Shown piece after piece: positions 2,951-41,990 of a stretch of 43,698 nucleotides of DNA (the stretch's first letter is position 1; the number at the start of each line of letters is the position of its first letter). Where the stretch lies: positions 4,936 to 48,633 of the forward strand of contig MFIK01000010.1 of assembly GCA_001778875.1 (NCBI GenBank), given 5' to 3'. The notes beneath the pieces were generated by a model. It was given only the letters and a program-made list of their open reading frames with translations, ran no database searches and was not told the DNA's origin. Origin of the DNA: Candidatus Giovannonibacteria bacterium RIFCSPLOWO2_02_FULL_43_54. GTDB taxonomy: Bacteria; Patescibacteriota; Minisyncoccia; UBA11713; 2-01-FULL-45-33. Position numbers and translations under genes: made by a program.

Positions 2951-3364
2951 CTAATTGAAATCCATATTCGGATACGCTTTGATCAGCTTTTCTAATGCAT
3001 CACTATCGCCCAGCATACGCAGTGCTTCGGCAAACAAATGCTGGTCACCCATTTGTCCGTGATGGTTGTTGCCGCCCGGTTTTTGGTAGCTTCGCAACAC
3101 CGCAAAGAGCTTAGCTCTCGGATCTACTGTGCCTTTCTCATTTTCTAGCTCTATTCCGGCGTGTCTAGCTATCGCTCCGGCCTCTATTACGAATTCTCCA
3201 CTTTCCTTGCTAGCCGCCATTTCTTTATGCAGAGCGTCTTCATAATCTGCTCTGTTTATAATACCGCCAAGCTCGCGATATTTGTCGTAAGTATCAGCGT
3301 TCTTTTCGGTATACTTCATATAGCCCACATCTTCATATATGTCTTCTTTGCCTTCTCTCATCAT
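2951..3364 (-). CDS. Hypothetical protein
   Basis: 137-aa ORF with protein-like composition, ending at the terminators; no recognised motif. Confidence 0.65.
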   Translation of the reverse strand: MMREGKEDIYEDVGYMKYTEKNADTYDKYRELGGIINRADYEDALHKEMAASKESGEFVIEAGAIARHAGIELENEKGTVDPRAKLFAVLRSYQKPGGNNHHGQMGDQHLFAEALRMLGDSDALEKLIKAYPNMDFN

Positions 3365-3460
3365 CTAATAATACATAATTTTTTGCAAATACAAAAACAC
3401 CCGGAAACCGTAACTATATATGAAGCAGGGAAGTTCTATTTATCAGAAAAAGTATTCAAA

Positions 3461-4014
3461 TTGCCAAAATTAAAGGTTTTACGGGATGAGGTTGTTTTTG
3501 ACGGCGCTTTTATAAGAACGATCAAAAGGCATTTTAAGGATAAAAAGGCCGCGAGCAGATTTGGGAGATGGTTGAACGGAAAAATTGCAAAAGGATAGTT
3601 GTCATTGCCGCAATCACGCCGGAGAAGGAAATTATTTTGGAAAAGATCTTTCGCGTGCCATTCAAGGATTATATTATCGAGTTGCCTGCTGGCCTCATGG
3701 ATATAGAAGGGGAATCCGAAGAATCTGCCGCGAAGAGGGAACTCCTGGAAGAGACCGGCTATGCGATTGATGAAATGTTGTTTCTGGACGCAGGCCCATT
3801 TAATACCGGACTTCTCAAAGATGAGCTTGCAATATATCTTGGCTTGAATGCGCGAAAAATCAAAGAACCCGAACTCGAGAGCTCTGAGGATTTGACGGTC
3901 ATAAAGGTGCCTCTGAAAAATCTGCTGAATTTTTTGGCAACAAGCCGTTTAAAACATGACATAAAAATTCCCGCTGTTTTAGCGCATTTGGCTGCGCGCG
4001 GCCTATTTATATAG
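3461..4014 (+). CDS. Nudix hydrolase (ADP-ribose pyrophosphatase-like), split by a -1 frameshift at about 3541-3547
   Basis: Nudix box ELPAGLMDIEGESEESAAKRELLEETGY in the 3568-4014 frame. The N-terminal part (TTG 3461, LPKLKVLRDEVVFDGAFIRTIKRHFKDK) is in another frame and joins as KDKK-GREQIWEMVERK. Confidence 0.8.
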
Positions 4015-4608
4015 GCCGTTTTTCTTTATGTACGCGGATATTTTCGGAAGGAGATAGGGGATACCGGAATATCCTTTTTTGATGAAATTGCGGATGATGG
4101 TGCTTGAAATGTTCACCCAGACAATATCTTTGTCCACCAACTTTATATTCGGCGGAAGTTTATCGGGAACTTTTGTTTCCGGTTTTCTTATTGCCAGAAA
4201 ATTCGCATTGTTCCAGAGCTCGTTGCCTTTTATCCAGTCATAGCGGATATTCCACAAAAGTTCGGATCCTATTAGAAAATAGAATTTATTGCCGGGATAT
4301 TTTTTTTCCAGTTCAATTTTTGTATCATAAGTCGTCGTCAGTCCGGGGCGGTCGAGTTCCAGCATTGAAATTTTAACAGGCACCGCCGAGCGTCCAGAGA
4401 ACTCGCGTATAAGTATATTCAGCATTTTGACGCGATGTTTGCCGGGCGTACCGATGTGCTTATCCTTTCTTTCAGAAGACGGCATTATCCAAATTTCATC
4501 GCATTCAAAATTCCGCAAAACGGCCTCGATAGCTATCGCGTGCCCGATGTGAGGTGGATTGAACGACCCTCCGTAGATTACTATTTTCTTGCGTTTTTCA
4601 GTTGACAT
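4003..4608 (-). CDS. nadD: Nicotinate-nucleotide adenylyltransferase
   Basis: YGGSFNPPHIGH (HxGH), FLIGSE and ISSTIIR motifs. Start placed at MSTEKRKK (4608) to avoid overlap with prs. Confidence 0.92.
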   Translation of the reverse strand: MSTEKRKKIVIYGGSFNPPHIGHAIAIEAVLRNFECDEIWIMPSSERKDKHIGTPGKHRVKMLNILIREFSGRSAVPVKISMLELDRPGLTTTYDTKIELEKKYPGNKFYFLIGSELLWNIRYDWIKGNELWNNANFLAIRKPETKVPDKLPPNIKLVDKDIVWVNISSTIIRNFIKKGYSGIPYLLPKISAYIKKNGLYK

Positions 4609-4660: not shown

Positions 4661-5620
4661 ATGATCATATTCTCTTGCAAAACAATGAAGCAGCTTGCCG
4701 ATAAGATTTACGCTGAATTGTGTGCGTTATCTGCCAGACGATTGAATATTGAGCCACGGCCCAGACTTGGAAAAATAAACTGGGACGAATTTGAAAAAAG
4801 CTGGCCGAATTATTCAATTGAAAATCCTGAAGGTACGGTGCGAGGTAAAGATGTTGTTTTTATCATGCACATGCCTGCTCCGGAAGATGTTTTCAAGCAG
4901 CTAGCTGTTGCGTGCGCGTTTCCGAGATATTTGGCAAAGAGTCTTAAGATAGTTCTGCCTCTGTTTCCAACCGGTACAATGGAACGCATTCAAAAATCGG
5001 GTGGAATTGCCACCGCAAAGACCTTGGCGCGTGAATTATCTCAAGTTCCGCTTACATGCACAGGGCCGGTTGAGCTCATGATGTTTGATCTACATGCTTC
5101 CGTCGAAAGATTTTATTTCTCCGATAATATTTTGCCTGATCCGCAGAGTGCCTTGCCTATCTTAAAAGAGAGAATACGGTCCATGGATGGTGTAGCAATT
5201 ACATTCCCTGACGAGGGTTCTTATAAGCGCTTTGGGCAGGAATTTGAAGAATATCCCATGATACTTTGCTATAAAAAGCGCCGGGGTGCAGACCGAAAGG
5301 TCACGATCGTTGAAGGTGATCCTGCAGGAAAAAATGTCTTGATCGTAGATGATCTCTCGCTGACAGCCGGTACAATGGTTGAGTGCGCCAAAGCCGTTCG
5401 TATATTCGGGCCATTGAGCATATCCGGATACGTGACCCATCCCGTTTTTCACGACGATAGCTGGCAAAAAATTATAAATTGCGGTATCTTTACTAAATTC
5501 TGGGTGACCGATTCGTGCCCATTTACCACTAATACAGTTTTTGATCCATTCAGAATAAACTCGTCGCTATTCGAAGTTCTTTCTCTCGCTCCGACTATCG
5601 CCAAAATTTTAGCCAGCTAG
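4661..5620 (+). CDS. prs: Ribose-phosphate pyrophosphokinase (PRPP synthase), class II-like
   Basis: PRPP loop VLIVDDLSLTAGT, FPDEGSYKRF, DLHA, YVTHPVF and VTDS motifs. Confidence 0.88.
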   Translation: MIIFSCKTMKQLADKIYAELCALSARRLNIEPRPRLGKINWDEFEKSWPNYSIENPEGTVRGKDVVFIMHMPAPEDVFKQLAVACAFPRYLAKSLKIVLPLFPTGTMERIQKSGGIATAKTLARELSQVPLTCTGPVELMMFDLHASVERFYFSDNILPDPQSALPILKERIRSMDGVAITFPDEGSYKRFGQEFEEYPMILCYKKRRGADRKVTIVEGDPAGKNVLIVDDLSLTAGTMVECAKAVRIFGPLSISGYVTHPVFHDDSWQKIINCGIFTKFWVTDSCPFTTNTVFDPFRINSSLFEVLSLAPTIAKILAS

Positions 5621-14793: not shown

Positions 14794-15550
14794 TTTGGTC
14801 AACGTGGCAGGTTGACCATTTTGCGCCGACATATATAATAGAGTCTATGAACAAACAAACTTTTTTCGAAGGAGAGCAGCCATTATTTCACATATTTAAC
14901 AGGGGTGTTGAAAAAAGAGAGATTTTTTTAGACGACAACGACAGAAATAGATTTTTATTTTTACTTTGCGTCCTTCAAGGCGATATTTTTTTCAACCACT
15001 CGTCGAGACTGGCTAAGGAGTTTGGTCAACGTGGCAGGTTAGCCATAGAGGAAATTATCGGAGATATTATAGACGCTAAAGTTGTTGAGCTTGTAGGTTT
15101 TGTTCTTATGCCAAATCATTTTCATTTGATTGTTCAGGAATTGAAAGAAGGAGGTGTTACTAAATTTATGAGCCGGCTGTCTAATAGTTATACAAAGTAT
15201 TTCAATATCAAAAATGACCGTAAAGGTTATTTGTTTGGTAGCAGTTTTCATAAAAAATTGATTGATACAAATGAATACCTTTTGCATCTATCGGCATATA
15301 TTCATCGCAACCCCCGCGAAATAAAGAAATGGAACAATAAGGAGAGTGATTATCCTTGGTCCAGTTATCAAGATTATATTGGCGAAAACAGATGGGGCAG
15401 CCTGTTGAATCCGGAAATAATTTTAGATCAATTCTCCAACAAAAAAGAATATTTAGAATTTACCAGATCCAGTAGTGCAAAATTAAAAGAATTCGAATTG
15501 GCATTGGAATTTGACTAAAGTTAAATGATCAACCTGGCAGGTTGACCAAA
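14794..15550. repeat. Three REP-like palindromes associated with the RAYT gene
   Basis: TGGTCAAC-GTGGCAG-GTTGACCA at 14796-14818; variant inside the CDS at 15023-15045; variant at 15526-15548, with TTTGGTCAAC on the minus strand. Confidence 0.85.
14847..15518 (+). mobile_element. REP-associated tyrosine (HUH/Y1) transposase, RAYT-like
   Basis: HIFNRG, VLMPNHFHL (HUH), YTKYFN, YIHRNP and YPWSSY motifs; flanked by REP palindromes. Confidence 0.9.
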
Positions 15551-27638: not shown

Positions 27639-27656
27639 GTGTATAATAGACAATAT

Positions 27657-28421
27657 ATGTTAGACGAACTCAAAAAGATCGGGTTGTCGGAGAACGAGGC
27701 GGAAGTATATATTGCGCTTCTTGAATTGGGTTCTGCCACGGCGCAGGAGATTGCCGCAAAGTCCGGCATAAAGCGGACAACCATCTATGTGCAAATTGAA
27801 GCCCTCCTGAAAATTGGGCTCGTTTCGTCTTTTGAAAAAGAGATGAGTAAGGGGAAAGTCCCGAAAACGTATTTCAGGGCGGAGGATCCGGAAAATCTTA
27901 AACGCGTTGTCGAAAAAGAAAAATCAACCACACAGGAAAAGGAAGACTCTCTCAAAAAAACTCTCCCTGATCTGGAAAGGCTTTTCCTTTCTTCGGGTGA
28001 GCGTCCGCGCGTAAGATTCTTTGAGGGTGTGGAAGGACTTAATGCTATGCAGGATGAATTTTTGAAAACTAAAGATAATTTGGTAGAGACTATTTCTTCA
28101 TTAGACGACGTTTTAAGAATTTTTCCTCAACATCCGGAAAAAAATACGCCTAGACGCATAAAAAGGCATATTGCCTCCAAACTTATCTATACATCTTCAC
28201 GAGGACCATTTCTTGAAAAAGAAAATAAAGAAATGCTGCGCGAAACACGTTATTTCCCGCCGGATAAATTTCATTTTTCCTGCGATATTGCTATTTACGG
28301 GAATATTGTCGCAATTTCCTCGTTACGAGGAGAACCGTTCGGGATAATTATAGAAAGTGAGCAGATTGCGAATTCCATGCGATCAATGTTTTATCTTGCC
28401 TGGAAAGGTGCGGATAAATAA
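27657..28421 (+). CDS. TrmB-family transcriptional regulator (winged helix plus effector-binding domain)
   Basis: IGLSENEAEVYIALLELG, IAAKSGIKRTTIY, PRVRFFEGVEG and C-terminal IAIYGNIVAI...IANSMRSMFYLAW; TATAAT just upstream of ATG 27657. Confidence 0.88.
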   Translation: MLDELKKIGLSENEAEVYIALLELGSATAQEIAAKSGIKRTTIYVQIEALLKIGLVSSFEKEMSKGKVPKTYFRAEDPENLKRVVEKEKSTTQEKEDSLKKTLPDLERLFLSSGERPRVRFFEGVEGLNAMQDEFLKTKDNLVETISSLDDVLRIFPQHPEKNTPRRIKRHIASKLIYTSSRGPFLEKENKEMLRETRYFPPDKFHFSCDIAIYGNIVAISSLRGEPFGIIIESEQIANSMRSMFYLAWKGADK

Positions 28422-28436
28422 ATTAAATAAAAATTC

Positions 28437-28468
28437 AGCCGTACTGGGGTACCAGTACGGCTTTTTTT
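28437..28468. terminator. Intrinsic terminator after trmB, possibly bidirectional
   Basis: AGCCGTACTGG-GGTA-CCAGTACGGCT followed by a T run, with A-rich sequence upstream. Confidence 0.85.
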
Positions 28469-28596
28469 GATCAGGTATTCTGCCCGATCAAACGCAAAAC
28501 AGTAATTTATGCTTTTTTGCAAAACACATCTTTACACATCCTTTTGTTAGATCGGTTGCCAATAGCGACCAAAAAAAACAAGACAACAAACAAGTC

Positions 28597-28728
28597 TCAA
28601 TCCGCAATTTTTATAGTCCGTGCATTTCGCATCACTTCCTTTCCTCCTTGTGATGCCGCTTTGCGTTCGAGTGTACCCCCCAAGCATAGCGACCAAGCCG
28701 CTAAGAGGGGAAAGTTGATATTTTCCAT
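28597..28728 (-). CDS. 43-aa small ORF convergent on trmB (not in the ORF track)
   Basis: MENINFPLLAAWSLCLGGTLERKAASQGGKEVMRNARTIKIAD; SD GAGGAGG upstream; has its own promoter. Confidence 0.5.
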   Translation of the reverse strand: MENINFPLLAAWSLCLGGTLERKAASQGGKEVMRNARTIKIAD

Positions 28729-28771
28729 TTACCCTCCTCACGGCAAGTTGTTGAATTTACATTCTGTTGTA

Positions 28772-28800
28772 AGTCTAGCATATCTAATTTTAAAAGTCAA
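28772..28800 (-). promoter_or_regulatory. Sigma70-type promoter with extended -10 (minus strand)
   Basis: TTGACT, 17 bp, TAGACT, with the TGn extension (TGcTAGACT). Confidence 0.7.
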
Positions 28801-28871
28801 TAGGTGTCATCTGATTACAAAACATTTCAAAATGCAAAATAATGGCTTTAAATAAGAGCTTTTTTGCTAAA

Positions 28872-28889
28872 ATGACATATTTATGTCAT
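28872..28889. promoter_or_regulatory. Palindromic operator candidate
   Basis: ATGACATA-TT-TATGTCAT, ending 6 bp before the -35 of the + strand promoter. Confidence 0.6.
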
Positions 28890-28895
28890 AGGTAC

Positions 28896-28924
28896 TTGAC
28901 AAGAATTCAAAACGGGAGTATACT
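28896..28924 (+). promoter_or_regulatory. Near-consensus sigma70 promoter driving the ORF/structured-RNA array
   Basis: TTGACA (28896-28901), 17 bp, TATACT (28919-28924). Confidence 0.85.
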
Positions 28925-29160
28925 GACAAAAGTTAAGTCTTAACAATTTGTCAGTAGCCAAACGGTTGGCGGAACTTTTCTAGGCAGGGCATCGATCTTT
29001 AATAAAAAACAATTTGATCGCCCCTGAACCACTTTAGAGGTTTTAGGCTAATCACAAGGTTATTGATACATGGGTAGGGTCTCCTGAGGAGACCAGAAGT
29101 CAGATTAGACATGGGTGTCTGACTTCCGGTCTCCTCAAAATTTAAAAAAATAGGAGGCCT

Positions 29161-29253
29161 ATGATTCGAGTCGGTAACCGGATCCTCTGGGTCGGCAAGG
29201 ACGGATTGCTCTATAGCACCCGCACCGCCGCCCTTGAGTCCTTCAAGGACTGA
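29161..29253 (+). CDS. 30-aa small ORF (not in the ORF track)
   Basis: MIRVGNRILWVGKDGLLYSTRTAALESFKD; AGGAGG at 29152-29157, only 3 nt before the ATG. Confidence 0.5.
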   Translation: MIRVGNRILWVGKDGLLYSTRTAALESFKD

Positions 29254-29258
29254 CAAAT

Positions 29259-29470
29259 GAGGGTCAAGTGGGAGACCTGCCTGCCGGCAGGCAGGAAAAT
29301 CCCGGAGCCGGTAAGTCGGCTTGGCAACAGAACCCCCCGCGAACGGGGAAACTTGATGGAAAGTCAAAGTACCTTCTTCTCCGGTTCAAACCCGGACTTC
29401 CATCAAAGTTCTAACATTCCAACATTCTGCAGAATATAAGAATGTTACGGAATGAGGATTTTGATGGGAG
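29259..29470 (+). ncRNA. Structured module 1, ending in conserved hairpin copy 1 (29397-29470)
   Basis: Nested stems GAGGGT/ACCTTC and CAAGT/ACTTG enclose several hairpins, then TCCGG/CCGGA and CTTCCATCAAAG/TTTTGATGGGAG. Confidence 0.55.
29276..29295. repeat. Perfect 20-bp palindrome CCTGCCTGCCGGCAGGCAGG (REP-like)
   Basis: Seen directly; a degenerate copy lies inside nrtR at 8546-8566. Confidence 0.8.
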
Positions 29471-29512
29471 TAAAAATTCCCAAAGTTGAAAAACAATATG
29501 ACAGGCTCCGTG

Positions 29513-29741
29513 GTGAGACGGCGTCCCGTGCCTGCGAAAGCGGGGCGGTGGGCTTGGAGGGGATCGTAAGCCCCCGTAAGCCAGTCTATGACTATCCCAG
29601 GAGAAAGGTACGCTTAACCCCTCCGAAGGCGGTCTGCAGACTGCCATCTCACTCCGGTTAAAAATTTAACCGGCTTCCATCAAAGTTTATTTTATTTAGC
29701 AATCGGATTGCTAAGTGGCAAAAAGTAAATTTTGATGGGAG
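29513..29741 (+). ncRNA. Structured module 2, ending in conserved hairpin copy 2 (29674-29741)
   Basis: Closing stem GTGAGA/TCTCAC, a GAAA-tetraloop hairpin, GGAGGGG/CCCCTCC, then CCGGTTA/TAACCGG and the conserved hairpin. Confidence 0.55.
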
Positions 29742-29824
29742 CGTAAAAATGAGAACATTCACGCTCCAAGGAGTAAAAGGATAGTTCTTTTTAAAAAATA
29801 GTTCAGAAAAATTTGGAGGACGAG

Positions 29825-30040
29825 ATGAACCAATGGTTTCGTTATTTTCTTGGAACTCCGCAAAGATTTTTGCGGACGTTCGTGGTAGTTGGTCTGATTG
29901 TCGTGATTTTAAACCCCGGCCTACTTGCGTTGGCAGTAAACCGTTTTCTTGGAGAGATGAACCCGCTTATCGGGCCTCTTCTGCAAATCGGAATTGTTGT
30001 CGCCGGCATTAGAATAATACTCTTCGGCCGGAAAAAATGA
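29825..30040 (+). CDS. Small membrane protein, hypothetical
   Basis: SD GGAGG at 29815-29819; two hydrophobic segments and a basic C-terminus. Confidence 0.75.
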   Translation: MNQWFRYFLGTPQRFLRTFVVVGLIVVILNPGLLALAVNRFLGEMNPLIGPLLQIGIVVAGIRIILFGRKK

Positions 30041-30119
30041 AAAACGGGCCAGTGGTTTAGACAAAGGGAGTAACAATGCATGGCGCCTTTCGCCATATCC
30101 GAAACCAAGAGGAGGTACC

Positions 30120-30470
30120 ATGGAAGTATTTCTTTACCGTTCGGACGATGAAGAAGGCGCAAGCAACGGCGGCGGTTTTACCAGGCTCCTGTGCGTGGAT
30201 CGGAAGGTCCACGTTACACACAGCGGAAGCTGGTACGACCAGACCGGTTGCGAGTACGACGCCTTTGATTCAGAAAACTGGGAAGTAACCGGGCCATGCG
30301 ACGGCAGTTGTACCCCAAAAGGGTTTCTAACTGTCGAAGCAGTGGATCTGGTCAACCGATTCTTAAGTTCCGATGGCAAGGATTTGCACGGGTGGTCGAA
30401 AACCACTAAGCGCTATCCTGATGCCAAGCGGAACGAAGATCGGACACCCAGGAGACTGAATCGCTGGTAG
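30120..30470 (+). CDS. Hypothetical protein
   Basis: SD GAGGAGG upstream; 116 aa; no recognised family. Confidence 0.7.
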   Translation: MEVFLYRSDDEEGASNGGGFTRLLCVDRKVHVTHSGSWYDQTGCEYDAFDSENWEVTGPCDGSCTPKGFLTVEAVDLVNRFLSSDGKDLHGWSKTTKRYPDAKRNEDRTPRRLNRW

Positions 30471-30693
30471 TCCTAACCGTTTACACAAACGTAATGTGCC
30501 GTGGGGTTAAGGCAAAGATAACCCACGTTAAAGGGCGTCCGGCTCATATAGAGCCTTAAGCTGCCCTGACCTAAACTCGGTTTAGGTCAAAAGTGCCGAG
30601 GATCTAGCAACGGAAGTCATAGCGCTTCCGGCTTCCATCAAAGCTTCTCTTCTCTAATTCGCGCGAATAGGAGAATAGAGATTTTGATGGGAG
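30468..30693 (+). ncRNA. Structured module 3, ending in conserved hairpin copy 3 (30632-30693)
   Basis: Four successive hairpins (e.g. TGACCTAAAC/GTTTAGGTCA), then CGGAAG/CTTCCG and the conserved hairpin. Confidence 0.55.
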
Positions 30694-30751
30694 TAATGGA
30701 TAGCTCTTTGTTTAAAATATATAGTCAAAAACAGAAAAGGAGAAAACTAAA

Positions 30752-30943
30752 ATGAAATGTCCGGATTGCGATGAAGAAATGGATAGAGAAGACGGTGCGA
30801 GCATTAAGGGTGCACCAAACTGCATTTATTCGTGTGAAGAGTGCGGGAGCGAATTCGTGTGGACGAAAGGCGTGAAAGGATTGAGGCGGATTGCTGAGGG
30901 AGTCCCGAACTCCGCGGCAATTTTGAACAGAAACCATTTCTGA
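30752..30943 (+). CDS. Small zinc-ribbon protein
   Basis: CPDC and CEEC pairs; SD AAGGAG upstream. Confidence 0.75.
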   Translation: MKCPDCDEEMDREDGASIKGAPNCIYSCEECGSEFVWTKGVKGLRRIAEGVPNSAAILNRNHF

Positions 30944-30962
30944 AGAAAAGGGAGGCAAGCTA

Positions 30963-31580
30963 ATGAGCGAAAAGTGCGGCTGGGAGCTTGAAACTCTCAG
31001 CGAACTTTGCTCGCTCTGGCGAAGCGGTGCACATGGATATTCGCTGGAGTTCCTCGCGGATACCATTTGCACCAACCTTGCGCGGCAACGCAGATTCGGC
31101 GGAGACGAAGTTGGCGTGAAAGTTGCTTTAGAGCTTCTTTCCTCAGATCTAAGTCTTGCCGAATCGGCGCTTGAAGATATTCTTGCAAAAGAATTATTCA
31201 AAGCCGTACTGGGCTTCGTTAAGAAGATCCGGCGAAACGGACTTGAGCGGTATGATGATTGCGATAAGTTGTATGATGTCGCGAGCGAGGGCAACCACCT
31301 TCTATGTGACTACGACTCATTTCATCTGCTACTCAAGACATTGTCGGATGCTTCACTTCCGCAATCGGGGCGCGAGAAGCTCGCAAAAGAAAAAGCGTGG
31401 TTTTCGTTAACCACACGGCTTCTTGAGCGGTACTTCTATGTGTTCTGGTCTGCGTCGCTCATGGCGGACGGTTATTGCCGACACTGGAAAGTTGAAAGCA
31501 ATAATCCGCTCTCGCTCATGAAGCACATCGTGGAACTTCCGGAAGGAACAAGTTATGAAGAGTTTAAACGCTCTCTGTAA
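30963..31580 (+). CDS. Hypothetical, probably alpha-helical protein
   Basis: SD GGGAGG upstream; 205 aa; no recognised family. Confidence 0.7.
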   Translation: MSEKCGWELETLSELCSLWRSGAHGYSLEFLADTICTNLARQRRFGGDEVGVKVALELLSSDLSLAESALEDILAKELFKAVLGFVKKIRRNGLERYDDCDKLYDVASEGNHLLCDYDSFHLLLKTLSDASLPQSGREKLAKEKAWFSLTTRLLERYFYVFWSASLMADGYCRHWKVESNNPLSLMKHIVELPEGTSYEEFKRSL

Positions 31581-31624
31581 TTTTTTCTTTTTGAGGTTTA
31601 GGGAGTACGAAGTGAACCGGAGAA

Positions 31625-31914
31625 GCAACGCGCAGAATCCCCCGCCTGACTGCGCGGAAAGTTGCCTTGCTCCGTTTGAGACGGAGAGCTCCGACTAGCG
31701 TCGGGAGTTTGCAACACACCAAGCTATAAAAGTTAGAGGCTGAAAGCTATCCCGTTGCAACTGGCGCCCTGCCTAAAAACAGGGCTGGTGATAAATTAAG
31801 GGGAAAAGATTTGCGGAGGATAGGATAAAAAAATCTTATCCCCCTTCCATCAAAGTTTTTATAAAATTATCTACTATGATATATCATGGTACTTTATGAA
31901 AATTTTGACGGGAG
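31625..31914 (+). ncRNA. Structured module 4, ending in conserved hairpin copy 4 (31844-31914)
   Basis: Stems GCAAC/GTTGC, GCGCAG/CTGCGC, CTCCGT/ACGGAG, TTGCAAC/GTTGCAA and GCCCTG/CAGGGC, then GGATAGGAT/ATCTTATCC and the conserved hairpin. Confidence 0.55.
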
Positions 31915-31955
31915 TACCGGAGGAAATTAAATAAAAATATACTAAAAAAGACTTT

Positions 31956-32312
31956 CTAAGCCCGTTTATCGATAGCGGCTTGGAGCTTTTCTTTCCATGT
32001 ATTTTGAGAATGGATTATCCTTTCGGCGCCCAAAGCCATAAGTTCTTTTTTTGTTTTTGCTTTTTCCGCGATGGGCTTCCAATATTTATTTAAAATTACC
32101 TCGCTTTCCGCTTTTGTAAATCGTGACGAAGGCGGTTTTTCAAAAACTTTTTCATCCACTTCGATCGGCTCCGACAAATCAACAACAAACGCGGCGTTGC
32201 CTTTGCGCTCATTTTCCAAAGCAATCGCTTTAGGGAAAACTGTTCCTCTATATCCATTGAACCCTTCGATTTCATTAACAAAACTGAACAAAGATTTTGG
32301 CTGATTTTCCAT
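31956..32312 (-). CDS. Hypothetical protein
   Basis: 118-aa ORF with protein-like composition, convergent on the array. Confidence 0.65.
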   Translation of the reverse strand: MENQPKSLFSFVNEIEGFNGYRGTVFPKAIALENERKGNAAFVVDLSEPIEVDEKVFEKPPSSRFTKAESEVILNKYWKPIAEKAKTKKELMALGAERIIHSQNTWKEKLQAAIDKRA

Positions 32313-32425
32313 GAACGGGAACCTTTCCGGATCAGGTAAGCTAGGCTTACTCTCTGGGCCGCTTCCATATTATAAATATTAACTTAATTTGGAATTTTTA
32401 GCAAATACTGCTATATTTTTCTGAT

Positions 32426-32526
32426 GCTCCTGTCGTCCCCGCCTGCAACGCTATGCCAACCCGTATCGCTACGCGAAGCGTTGCTGGCGGGCGTAGCATT
32501 GCGGGCAAGTAGTCTGGTTAGTCACG
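32426..32526 (+). pseudogene. 5' remnant of a tRNA gene interrupted by a 72-bp palindrome
   Basis: Removing 32438-32509 gives GCTCCTGTCGTCTAGTCTGGTTAGTCAC, similar to the 5' half of the adjacent tRNA-Glu; no T-arm is seen. Confidence 0.55.
32438..32509. repeat. 72-bp nested palindromic element, copy 1
   Basis: Differs at 3 positions from the copy in cysS (41337-41408). Confidence 0.9.
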
Positions 32527-32549
32527 ATTTTCTTGAAATTTTAATCCAC

Positions 32550-32624
32550 GGCCTCATCGTCTAGTCTGGTCTAGGACACACGGTTCTCATCCGTGGAACT
32601 CGGGTTCAAATCCCGATGAGGCCA
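32550..32624 (+). tRNA. tRNA-Glu (anticodon CTC)
   Basis: Acceptor GGCCTCA/TGAGGCC, anticodon arm CACGG-TTCTCAT-CCGTG, T-arm TCGGG-TTCAAAT-CCCGA; CCA is not encoded. Confidence 0.95.
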
Positions 32625-40506: not shown

Positions 40507-41990
40507 GCGTGGTGTTTTAACAACGGACCTCCATGCGCGTCCTGGATCTCCCAGCCAAGATCATAGATTTTTTGGCGCAGAAAGTCGGCAACGGCAAAAT
40601 CATGTAATTTTCTGGCGGTCTCCCGCTCTTTTAGAAGCCGTAAAATATCCTCGCCGGGTTTTTTCGGCTCGCGGCGGACATCGGCAAGTCCAAACCCAAA
40701 CATGCGATCGAACTCCAAAATAAGCCCCAAAACCTCACTTGCGGCGTATTTTTGACTATTTTTATTGTATTCGTTTATGATCACCCAGACTCGCGCCAGA
40801 GCTTTCGGCGTATCAAGGTCATTTAAAAAAGCTTCTTTCGCCTCGCTTGCAAATTTTGCAAGGACACACATATTTTTTTTATCTTGCAAAACTTGTGTCC
40901 TTGGCTCATTAAGCTTTTTTAAATTCAAAACGAAATCTTTAAGGCGTTCCAAAGAATTCTGTGCGAATTTTAACGACTCCAAGGTAAAGTTGAGTTGTGT
41001 GCGGTAATGCGCGCCAAGCACTAGATATCGAAAGGCAAGTGGGTCGAAATTTTTATTTTCAAGGTCGCGCAACGTAAAAACATTTCCTAGAGATTTCGAC
41101 ATCTTTTTCCCGTCCACCAATAAATGCTCGCCCTCAATAAAATATTTTACGAATCTTTTTTTTGTGGCACCCTCCGACTGCGCTATTTCATTTTCATGAT
41201 GCGGAAAAAGCAGATCGATGCCTCCGGCATGGATATCAAAGCCCTCTCCCAAATATTTCATACTCATCGCGGAGCACTCAATATGCCACCCAGGGCGCCC
41301 TTCGCCCCACGGAGATGGCCATGACGGTTCGCTGTCCCCGCCTGCAACGCTATGCCAGCCCGCATCGCTACGCGAAGCGTTGCTGGCGGGCGTAGCATTG
41401 CGGGCAGGTTTTTTTGCTTTCCACAAAACAAAATCTTCCGCACTTCCTTTTTCGTATTCGTCGGAATCGGTTCTGCGGAAGTCCGATCCGCCTTTGGCGA
41501 GATCCGACTTCCGAAGCCGTGAAAGCCGGCCATACTTTTTGAATTTAGAAACATCAAAATAAACCGACCCGTCGGAGCGATAAGCAAGCTTATTTTTTAT
41601 CAGTGTTTTTATCACGCCTATCATTTCCTTAATATGGTCCGTCGCTTTCGGATATTTCCACGCGGGTTCGATATTTAATTTTTTAATATCGTTATAAAAC
41701 GCCGCCTCATAAGGTTTCGTAAATTCAAAAATACTTTTTTGGGCCTCTCGCGCATTTTTGATTATCTTATCTTCGACATCGGTTATATTTATCACGTGCT
41801 TTACTTTATATCCTGCGGATTCCAGCGTGCGGCGCAATACATCTTCAAAAATATAAGTCCGCAAATTTCCGATATGCGCGTAATTATAAACCGTCGGTCC
41901 GCAAGTATATAAACCGACTTGCCCTTTTTTAGTCGGCTTAAAAATCTCCTTTTTGCGCGTTAAAAAATTGTAGAGCTTAATCGTAGCCAT
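40503..41990 (-). CDS. cysS: Cysteine--tRNA ligase with in-frame palindromic insertions
   Basis: CGPTVY, HIGN, GRPGWHIECS, FPHHENE and KMSKS motifs. Confidence 0.97.
   Translation of the reverse strand: MATIKLYNFLTRKKEIFKPTKKGQVGLYTCGPTVYNYAHIGNLRTYIFEDVLRRTLESAGYKVKHVINITDVEDKIIKNAREAQKSIFEFTKPYEAAFYNDIKKLNIEPAWKYPKATDHIKEMIGVIKTLIKNKLAYRSDGSVYFDVSKFKKYGRLSRLRKSDLAKGGSDFRRTDSDEYEKGSAEDFVLWKAKKPARNATPASNASRSDAGWHSVAGGDSEPSWPSPWGEGRPGWHIECSAMSMKYLGEGFDIHAGGIDLLFPHHENEIAQSEGATKKRFVKYFIEGEHLLVDGKKMSKSLGNVFTLRDLENKNFDPLAFRYLVLGAHYRTQLNFTLESLKFAQNSLERLKDFVLNLKKLNEPRTQVLQDKKNMCVLAKFASEAKEAFLNDLDTPKALARVWVIINEYNKNSQKYAASEVLGLILEFDRMFGFGLADVRREPKKPGEDILRLLKERETARKLHDFAVADFLRQKIYDLGWEIQDAHGGPLLKHHA
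41337..41408. repeat. 72-bp nested palindromic element, copy 2, in frame in cysS
   Basis: Encodes PARNATPASNASRSDAGWHSVAGG between WKAKK and DSEPSW. Confidence 0.9.

Follow-up and report, generated by a model that had tools for sequence, protein, structure and literature searches.

Folded non-coding modules in a hairpin-delimited array of a Candidatus Giovannonibacteria genome

Organization of the locus

The window analyzed here is a stretch of 43,698 nucleotides (nt) from contig MFIK01000010.1 of Candidatus Giovannonibacteria bacterium RIFCSPLOWO2_02_FULL_43_54, and it contains an array of units separated by long hairpin repeats. Two segments of this array, referred to as modules 1 and 2, had been presented in a preliminary description, made from the sequence alone, as tandem multibranch non-coding RNAs (ncRNAs) lacking a convincing open reading frame (ORF). 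Both segments were found to be non-coding and to form closed multibranch folds. We read them, tentatively and with slightly less than even confidence, as sense-folded compact RNA domains that would form the cassette content of one regulated transcript with hairpin-delimited units.

The array consists of four hairpin repeats, each with a fixed, continuous 12-pair stem at its base (CTTCCATCAAAG on the left, TTTTGAYGGGAG on the right) and a variable middle. The 740-kb assembly has no other array of this kind, and all four copies of the repeat lie inside this one. The features of the locus, in order along the window, are as follows (REP, repetitive extragenic palindrome; sORF, small ORF; G and L numbers denote related genomes and loci, respectively):

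27639–28421, + strand: gene of a TrmB-like winged-helix regulator (PF01978 TrmB, E 6.1e-18), adjoining the array
28437–28462, + strand: intrinsic terminator of the regulator gene, an 11-pair stem followed by a T run (z −6.07 for the covering fold window)
28872–28889, unstranded: operator-like palindrome ATGACAT, 4 nt, ATGTCAT, 6 nt upstream of the −35 hexamer (putative function)
28896–28924, + strand: array promoter of the sigma-70 type (TTGACA, 17 nt, TATACT), with 11 of 12 consensus matches the best site of the region
29067–29139, + strand: conserved, structured leader domain with two CATGGGT motifs and a long stem
29161–29253, + strand: 30-codon sORF, with AGGAGG 5 nt upstream and a stop codon that precedes the module 1 closing stem by 5 nt
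29259–29376, + strand: module 1, a closed domain with four hairpins, of the same architecture in independent folds of the window and G003 copies
29276–29295, unstranded: REP-type palindrome in the loop of module 1 hairpin 1, absent in G003
29351–29363, + strand: extra copy of the right-arm core (GATGGAA) in module 1, a two-mismatch match on the − strand, conserved in G003
29380–29396, + strand: small hairpin abutting repeat 1, seen in the fold; a related hairpin (29655–29673) precedes repeat 2
29397–29470, + strand: hairpin repeat 1, 74 nt, its centre a palindrome widespread in many genomes
29471–29673, + strand: ORF-less cassette with module 2, comprising a closed domain (29510–29652) and a small hairpin (29655–29673)
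29674–29741, + strand: hairpin repeat 2, corresponding to the bare hairpin of G002 plus a RAYT-type REP within the loop
30484–30631, + strand: module 3, the structured tail in which the next cassette ends, conserved at 93.3% identity to G003 over 150 nt
30632–30693, + strand: hairpin repeat 3, identified by the repeat pattern
31590–31843, + strand: module 4, GC-rich non-coding tail of the last cassette, 79.7% identical to G003 (L043) over 202 nt
31844–31914, + strand: hairpin repeat 4, identified by the repeat pattern, at the array end

The order of regulator, promoter, leader and units recurs in genomes G002, G003 and G011 and at the metagenome locus L104; promoter, leader and units were seen in L112, and G017 has a divergent regulator gene. 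The regulator homologues beside these arrays (G002, G003, G011, L104 and the divergent G017) were recognized by their translated gene ends, the Pfam match being that of the window gene. The palindrome at 28872–28889 is a likely operator for the adjacent TrmB-like protein, and similar palindromes occupy the same place before the promoter in L112, G002 and G003. The promoter itself is conserved in G002, G003, G011, L104, L112 and G017. No terminator-like site was found on the + strand between 28462 and 32108. In the long stem of the leader, 7 of 21 pairs are changed on both sides (RNAalifold, six loci), and a covariance model of this domain (R2) matched one copy each in six of 41 genomes, all of them in the array-holding family.

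Downstream of the leader the order is sORF, module 1, repeat 1, module 2 and repeat 2; the two units after repeat 2 carry small ORFs followed by GC-rich non-coding tails, module 3 in one unit and module 4 in the other. The arrangement is therefore not the simple tandem of modules first proposed, since the 74-nt hairpin of repeat 1 (29397–29470) lies between them and the sORF directly precedes module 1. The description of both modules as GC-rich islands in AT-rich spacers was borne out (GC content 0.56–0.61 vs 0.25–0.31). The cassette ORFs are themselves GC-rich, at about 0.5, and neither Pfam nor NCBIfam yielded a match for the small ORFs of the two units after repeat 2.

REP-type palindromes account for most of the variable middles of the hairpins. 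Palindromes of this kind also flank the five Y1 transposase (Y1_Tnp) matches of the genome, and those flanking palindromes match the centre of repeat 2 in type. Repeat 2 equals the bare 40-nt hairpin of G002 and L112 (comparison sites L047 4156–4195 and L112 3270–3310) with a 27-nt palindrome added in its loop. When REP/RAYT elements are defined as short palindromes with many dispersed copies, some of which flank a Y1 gene, the inserts belong to this class, and the modules and the base hairpin do not. In both repeat 2 and hairpin 1 of module 1, a REP-type palindrome has entered an A-rich loop of a hairpin that already existed. One of the Y1 transposase (RAYT-like) matches lies in the window at 14847–15518, with 26-nt palindromic repeats at 14794, 15021 and 15524.

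Where they cover the locus, contigs of four other sequencing runs have the same arrangement as the window, with no junction variant. In these four runs a single joint that goes back was seen, inside the palindromic centre of repeat 1, and excess read depth (10- to 20-fold at the centre of repeat 1) was confined to palindromic centres.

Module 1 and its sORF

On its pattern of substitution the sORF preceding module 1 is coding, because the window and G003 copies differ by six synonymous and four non-synonymous codon changes (differences by codon position, 5/3/9). The protein was found in its own genome only, one of 301 genomes of the class (a sample to which G003 does not belong). The distance from its stop codon to the closing stem of module 1 is 5 nt in the window and 3 nt in G003.

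The strings on which the proposed structure of module 1 was built are present (GAGGGT 29259–29264 and ACCTTC 29371–29376; CAAGT 29265–29269 and ACTTG 29351–29355), and RNAfold closes GAGGGT/ACCTTC around four hairpins, as proposed. The inner CAAGT/ACTTG stem fared less well: its strings are there in the window, and the pairing is not kept in G003. The palindrome noted in module 1 does sit in a hairpin loop. It has three exact copies in the genome and many in relatives.

The copy of module 1 in G003, a genome of the same genus, is 76.5% identical to that of the window over 102 aligned bases. A covariance model built from the G003 copy alone (R3) matches module 1 of the window end to end, with 52.3 bits and an E-value of 1.3e-10 (E-values come from a shortened model calibration and are rough), and its alignment accommodates the REP palindrome as an insertion of 24 nt within the hairpin 1 loop. 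Between these two sequences the closing stem and hairpins 1–3 are kept. In hairpin 3, CCCCG/CGGGG of the window is replaced by CCGCG/CGCGG in G003, so that one pair is changed on both sides. A search with R3 through 38 sources yielded no members beyond the window and G003; two further matches (E 0.28) lay on the wrong strand inside an ORF and were taken as chance. The kept fold, the score of 52.3 bits and the two-sided change give some support to the earlier proposal of a functional ncRNA in the case of module 1.

The GATGGAA copy in module 1 forms the 5′ strand of hairpin 4. Its complementarity to the left arm of repeat 1 holds in both genomes, so that an alternative pairing with this arm could form. 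The preliminary description had seen no primary sequence shared by the two modules. This does not hold for their ends, where a terminal small hairpin starting with TCCGGTT is common to both and abuts the next repeat. A small hairpin precedes most of the hairpin repeats inspected in related loci.

Module 2

Module 2 is the whole content of a 203-nt unit between repeats 1 and 2. The strings of its proposed closing stem (GTGAGA 29513–29518 and TCTCAC 29647–29652) and the C-GAAA-G hairpin (~29533–29547) are in place, and RNAfold returned a closed multibranch domain with GTGAGA/TCTCAC as its closing stem. GGAGGGG (29557–29563) and CCCCTCC (29618–29624) are likewise present as strings, but the stem proposed between them lies outside the minimum-energy fold.

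The judgement that the modules are non-coding was upheld. No start context for an ORF is present. The 69-amino-acid (aa) + frame of module 2 has as its sole match an identical 65-aa entry among 1.84 billion representative proteins; the 78-aa − frame has no protein relative (lengths of 42–137 residues searched), and the + frames gave no Pfam match.

In G003, module 1 is followed by one hairpin and then by the membrane-protein unit, and module 2 together with one hairpin is absent. The metagenome relative L112 is 91.6% identical to the window over 30074–31869, and there the block from the sORF through module 1 and repeat 1 to module 2 is replaced by another ORF with a 235-nt tail; on the right, the break coincides with the left base of repeat 2. 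Module 2 is thus a unit whose presence varies among relatives. These differences support the earlier view of the modules as cargo of the array. Contigs of another run span 29221–29887 without any difference from the window.

Folding strength and comparison with known RNA families

Folding energies of the modules were calculated with RNAfold and compared with those of 200 shuffled sequences:

Module 1 (29259–29381), + strand: −50.5 kcal/mol, z −2.77, 1/200 shuffles as good
Module 1, − strand: −50.0 kcal/mol, z −2.53, 2/200 shuffles as good
Module 2 (29513–29652), + strand: −61.2 kcal/mol, z −2.70, 3/200 shuffles as good
Module 2, − strand: −58.0 kcal/mol, z −2.38, 2/200 shuffles as good

A sliding scan with 140-nt segments was run over 28401–32390. 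Its outliers were the hairpin repeats (z −3.9 to −6.8) and the terminator of the regulator gene (−6.1). In the comparison with shuffled sequences that had been suggested for the modules, both folded better than most shuffles and were matched by a neighbouring ORF.

At gathering thresholds the only Rfam match of the whole window is the tRNA at 32550–32624, so the suggestion that the modules are ribozymes or riboswitches found no match to stand on. When E-values up to 10 were allowed over 28400–32600, only chance-level matches to microRNA-type hairpins appeared, and ten related loci gave only tRNAs. Three housekeeping RNAs were considered as identities of the modules and rejected: RNase P RNA, which lies on another contig, and 6S RNA and signal recognition particle (SRP) RNA, for which the distribution of the modules is too patchy. 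As a separate observation, the SRP RNA model RF00169 had no match at E 0.01 or better in any of 20 family genomes, of which one is complete, and nothing was found with the large SRP model and the 6S model in the genome of the window (G000). The 6S and SRP RNAs are either very divergent here or missing.

Related arrays and sister modules

Of 20 family genomes, 6 contain the hairpin pattern; counted together with the genomes matched by the leader model, these make seven genomes of three genera (Candidatus Giovannonibacteria). Scans with this pattern returned 33 loci from all species genomes and 63 loci from metagenome contigs. About a third were judged real by extended pairing and taxon; the other two thirds or so, from unrelated taxa and without extended pairing, were set aside as chance. 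Viral contigs gave no match to the pattern.

The segments between hairpins span 112–1792 nt and hold genes, tRNAs or folded domains. At nine loci, 6 of 23 such segments contain no ORF of 45 codons on either strand. These six are 112–204 nt long, with a GC content of 0.46–0.66, and four of them fold, like module 2, as a closed multibranch domain plus a small hairpin abutting the next repeat. In the ORF-less unit shared by G011 and L104, all 44 predicted pairs are kept through four double and seven single changes, and many of the pairs are G.U.

The tails of the later cassettes are also conserved. No BLAST match was obtained between the ORFs that precede module 3 in the window and in G003, in contrast to the conservation of the module itself. 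Across genomes, module 3 stands behind at least three different ORFs, and in its family of six members 7 of 26 pairs are changed on both sides and the loops are invariant. Module 4 is 94.6% identical to L112 over its last 240 nt. Folded non-coding units are a regular part of these arrays, and this regularity is the best support, by analogy, for reading modules 1 and 2 likewise.

Units of related arrays also contain tRNA genes: a tRNA-Tyr in G011 (L024 395–482, − strand; ARAGORN), a tRNA-Tyr in L104 (~3625–3710, read from the sequence) and, in G017, a tRNA after the first module (L128 ~1190–1265, − strand, read from the sequence).

Some further observations were made at these loci. Arrays adjoin tRNA genes in the window, in G003 and, as a run of 14 tRNAs, in a Sungbacteria contig. 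In the window, the tRNA at 32550–32624 has directly upstream one copy (32435–32510) of a 76-nt GC-rich repeat, the other copy of which (41334–41409) is 96% identical and 8.9 kb away. A family of very basic micro-proteins of about 43 residues, with a PLPRQ..GG...KGKRGYDR-type motif, is part of the array content in three genera. In one family of cassette ORFs the ribosome-binding site is preceded, at a distance of about 20 nt, by a small hairpin that is conserved (ATGGCGCC, loop, GGCGCCAT-like). A second array-like locus was seen at another genomic place in genome G001; it comprises a separate near-consensus promoter, a GC-rich leader of 330 nt that does not resemble the CATGGGT leader, a pair of small ORFs and a tail, and its hairpin is nearly identical to repeat 3 of the window. 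The positions are:

L047 4272–4403; L128 ~1045–1165, − strand; L048 ~2385–2528, − strand: basic micro-proteins of ~43 residues
Window 30079–30097; L047 ~3025–3045 and ~4415–4435; L112 ~3447–3465: ATGGCGCC/GGCGCCAT-like small hairpin
L036 4400–6100, − strand: second array-like locus

Strand bias of the hairpins

Statistics of the hairpin repeats were based on 40 hairpins picked by hand from 124 pattern matches; the 84 matches dropped came from unrelated taxa and lacked extended pairing, or were duplicates. The outer 13 pairs of the 40 hairpins comprise 417 Watson-Crick, 80 G.T, 14 A.C and 9 other pairs. At positions 13–19, which are not constrained by the search pattern, 43 G.T pairs stand against 7 A.C pairs. 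The sense strand is the more stable in 38 of 40 hairpins, with mean energies of −27.2 vs −19.3 kcal/mol, and this better-folding strand is the strand of the promoter and of most ORFs. The bias points to a transcript as the acting form, or possibly to single-stranded DNA of the same strand.

Discussion

In our preferred reading, the array would be one long transcription unit, with a TrmB-like regulator, a near-consensus promoter, a structured leader and hairpin-separated units. The hairpins would most likely act in the RNA as insulators, as end-protecting structures or as protein-recognition sites, and the closed modules might survive as compact RNAs with a role as stability or scaffold domains. 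Module 1 would be the 3′ domain of the sORF unit and coupled to the sORF: a terminating ribosome would be expected to open its closing stem, because this stem starts 5 nt after the stop codon; the spare copy of the right-arm core held by module 1 could pair with the left arm of the following hairpin. Module 2 would stand alone as an ORF-less unit made of a closed multibranch domain and a small 3′ hairpin, and the five other ORF-less units of related arrays may be of the same kind. We infer the transcription of the array, any processing of the transcript and any function of module 2 from this layout.

Several results weigh against reading the modules as RNA domains. Their z-scores are modest and similar on both strands, and the sliding scan gave z −2.6 to −3.1 for the modules vs −3.1 to −3.7 for the ORF at 30120–30470; module folding therefore beats shuffled sequence, though not more than the surroundings do. 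Module 1 has a single homologue, that of G003, in which the register of hairpin 4 is not kept, and it has tolerated a REP insertion. For module 2, BLAST returned no homologue from 61 genomes, 10 genome loci or 62 metagenome loci, nor did a single-sequence covariance model (R1) from 39 sources and 101 genomes, so that the homologue search proposed in the preliminary description succeeded for module 1 only. The 40 hairpins behind the strand bias were hand-picked from 124, with an orientation set by the search pattern, and G.T pairs are tolerated in single-stranded DNA too. An RNase III domain (PF14622, PF00636) was not found in the 96% complete assembly, and therefore no processing enzyme is named for the long hairpins.

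The same observations can be read at the level of DNA. A cassette system analogous to an integron, with the hairpins as single-stranded DNA recombination sites, a recombinase located elsewhere or not recognized as such, and modules that are possibly RNAs as well, is in our estimate unlikely. It would explain why units are gained, lost or replaced between close relatives (G003, L112), why module 3 follows different ORFs, why the array keeps a fixed locus behind one strong promoter, and why its ORFs match no family; integrons, too, have ORF-less cassettes, some of which encode regulatory RNAs (according to passages of PMC8876359), and a motif found without an integrase in consecutive intergenic regions is discussed as a possible unusual attC in PMC5737381. 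The enzyme and the site of an integron are missing here, however. The gene at the head of the array encodes the TrmB-like regulator, no recombinase was found beside any array examined (34 ORFs around seven other loci), and the only tyrosine recombinase of the genome (PF00589) is of the Xer type, lies on another contig (C14) and scores 127.9 bits against the integron integrase model TIGR02249, vs a cut-off of 265. Sites of the attC type carry an inverse core in addition to the core GTTRRRY. Integron recombination takes place in the GTTRRRY core common to attI and attC, via the folded bottom strand (passages of PMC8876359). Near the 3′ end of our 40 hairpins this core occurs once on the + strand and not at all on the − strand, it is never accompanied by the inverse core (0 of 40, either strand), and it is the top, coding strand that folds better, unlike the bottom strand used by attC, with the reservation that folding energy is not a recombination assay. 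The lack of junction variants in four other runs, the position of some window/L112 breakpoints away from hairpins, and the fact that short repeats alone could give such deletions by ordinary recombination argue in the same direction. Because there is no integrase and no GTTRRRY core and the top strand folds better, the locus is not an integron; it may nevertheless work in an integron-like manner.

Two further explanations concern the modules themselves. They could be functionless GC-rich debris, such as decayed coding sequence or leftovers of palindromic elements, that folds by chance, which we regard as improbable. This would fit module 2 being an orphan in every search, and also the fact that GC-rich sequence folds well by composition, with the ORF at 30120–30470 reaching z-scores as good; both strands of the modules fold about equally, the locus is a sink for REP-type palindromes, and the cassette ORFs are similarly GC-rich. 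It does not account for the preservation of the module 1 architecture between copies of 76.5% identity, one of whose pairs has changed on both sides, for sister modules that are far better conserved than the adjoining ORFs and show compensatory changes and invariant loops, for the recurrence of ORF-less units (6 of 23) with a common layout of closed domain plus hairpin, or for module 2 being identical in contigs from other samples. Alternatively, the modules could be cis-regulatory leaders, module 1 sensing translation of the sORF and switching the next hairpin, and module 2 acting like a riboswitch for the membrane-protein unit; this appears quite improbable. The short distance between the sORF stop and the closing stem in both genomes would suit such a role, as would the complementarity of the GATGGAA copy to the left arm of repeat 1, and the right arm of the hairpin ends in GGGAG, which is the only Shine-Dalgarno-like sequence before the ORF at L104 ~4070–4085 and at L047 ~5540–5565. 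Yet G003 has the same downstream unit without module 2, which shows that the unit does not need it, no riboswitch family was matched, neither module is followed by a terminator-like hairpin with a T run, and the module 1 switch is drawn from two sequences.

Returning to the reading of modules 1 and 2 as RNA domains of a transcribed array, its nearest published parallels are the ORF-less integron cassettes (PMC8876359) and the DUF1874 motif (PMC5737381). Integron arrays resemble the present one in having a single upstream promoter followed by consecutive units, and at the end of each unit stands an imperfect hairpin whose ends are conserved and whose middle varies; the ORFs are mostly without a family, some units lack ORFs, and close relatives differ in content (passages of PMC8876359). 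Arrays without an integrase exist as well, as cited in PMC5737381. The arrays described here differ in lacking an integrase and a GTTRRRY core, in their continuous 12-pair conserved stem, in the better folding of the sense strand, as opposed to the bottom strand in attC (PMC8876359, same passages), and in holding tRNA genes and long structured tails. The DUF1874 motif is likewise a structured element that recurs in one intergenic region after another (element, ORF, element, ORF), and no integrase lies at the 5′ end; the authors leave undecided whether RNA or single-stranded DNA is its acting form (Weinberg et al. 2017, PMC5737381). That motif is described there as a multistem structure with a conserved internal loop, while the recurring element here is a simple long hairpin, and the multistem parts, i.e., the modules, vary from unit to unit.

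Two other comparisons concern the repeats. Palindromes of the type found in systems of REPs or bacterial interspersed mosaic elements (BIMEs) with RAYT (Y1) transposases occur in the loops of the array hairpins, and another palindrome lies in module 1, but the base hairpin is not dispersed and its sequence is unrelated to the REPs beside transposase genes. Intergenic hairpins in operons can protect upstream RNA. Arrays of clustered regularly interspaced short palindromic repeats (CRISPR) have a promoter and leader followed by conserved repeats that form RNA hairpins and delimit variable inserts, and the array analyzed here similarly has a promoter, a leader and conserved hairpin repeats around variable inserts. 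It differs in that its inserts span 112–1792 nt with genes, tRNAs and folded domains, and in that the middles of its repeats are variable. No cas genes turned up, the ORFs scanned between and beside the repeats having no Pfam match, and no CRISPR family of Rfam was matched. No earlier description of such arrays in these bacteria was found in the literature searched, most subscription journals being outside its reach.

Bacteria of the candidate phyla radiation (CPR) have tiny genomes with little spare DNA. The locus of this small-genome groundwater CPR bacterium nevertheless spends several kb on folded non-coding segments, micro-ORFs and a tRNA behind one strong promoter. It is doubtful, though conceivable, that the array is an undescribed CPR cassette platform that gathers folded RNAs, tRNAs and micro-proteins and expresses them from a single regulated promoter, in which a conserved RNA or single-stranded DNA hairpin replaces attC, no integron integrase takes part, and the modules represent two new classes of compact ncRNA that travel as mobile units. 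If the hairpins are RNA punctuation, the array would be a new way to package many small RNAs and peptides in one transcript. If they are recombination sites, it would be an integron-like system without the enzyme or the site of an integron, widening the known range of bacterial gene shuffling. Either way, the arrays provide a set of well-delimited candidate RNAs, some already with compensatory changes, that are directly testable.

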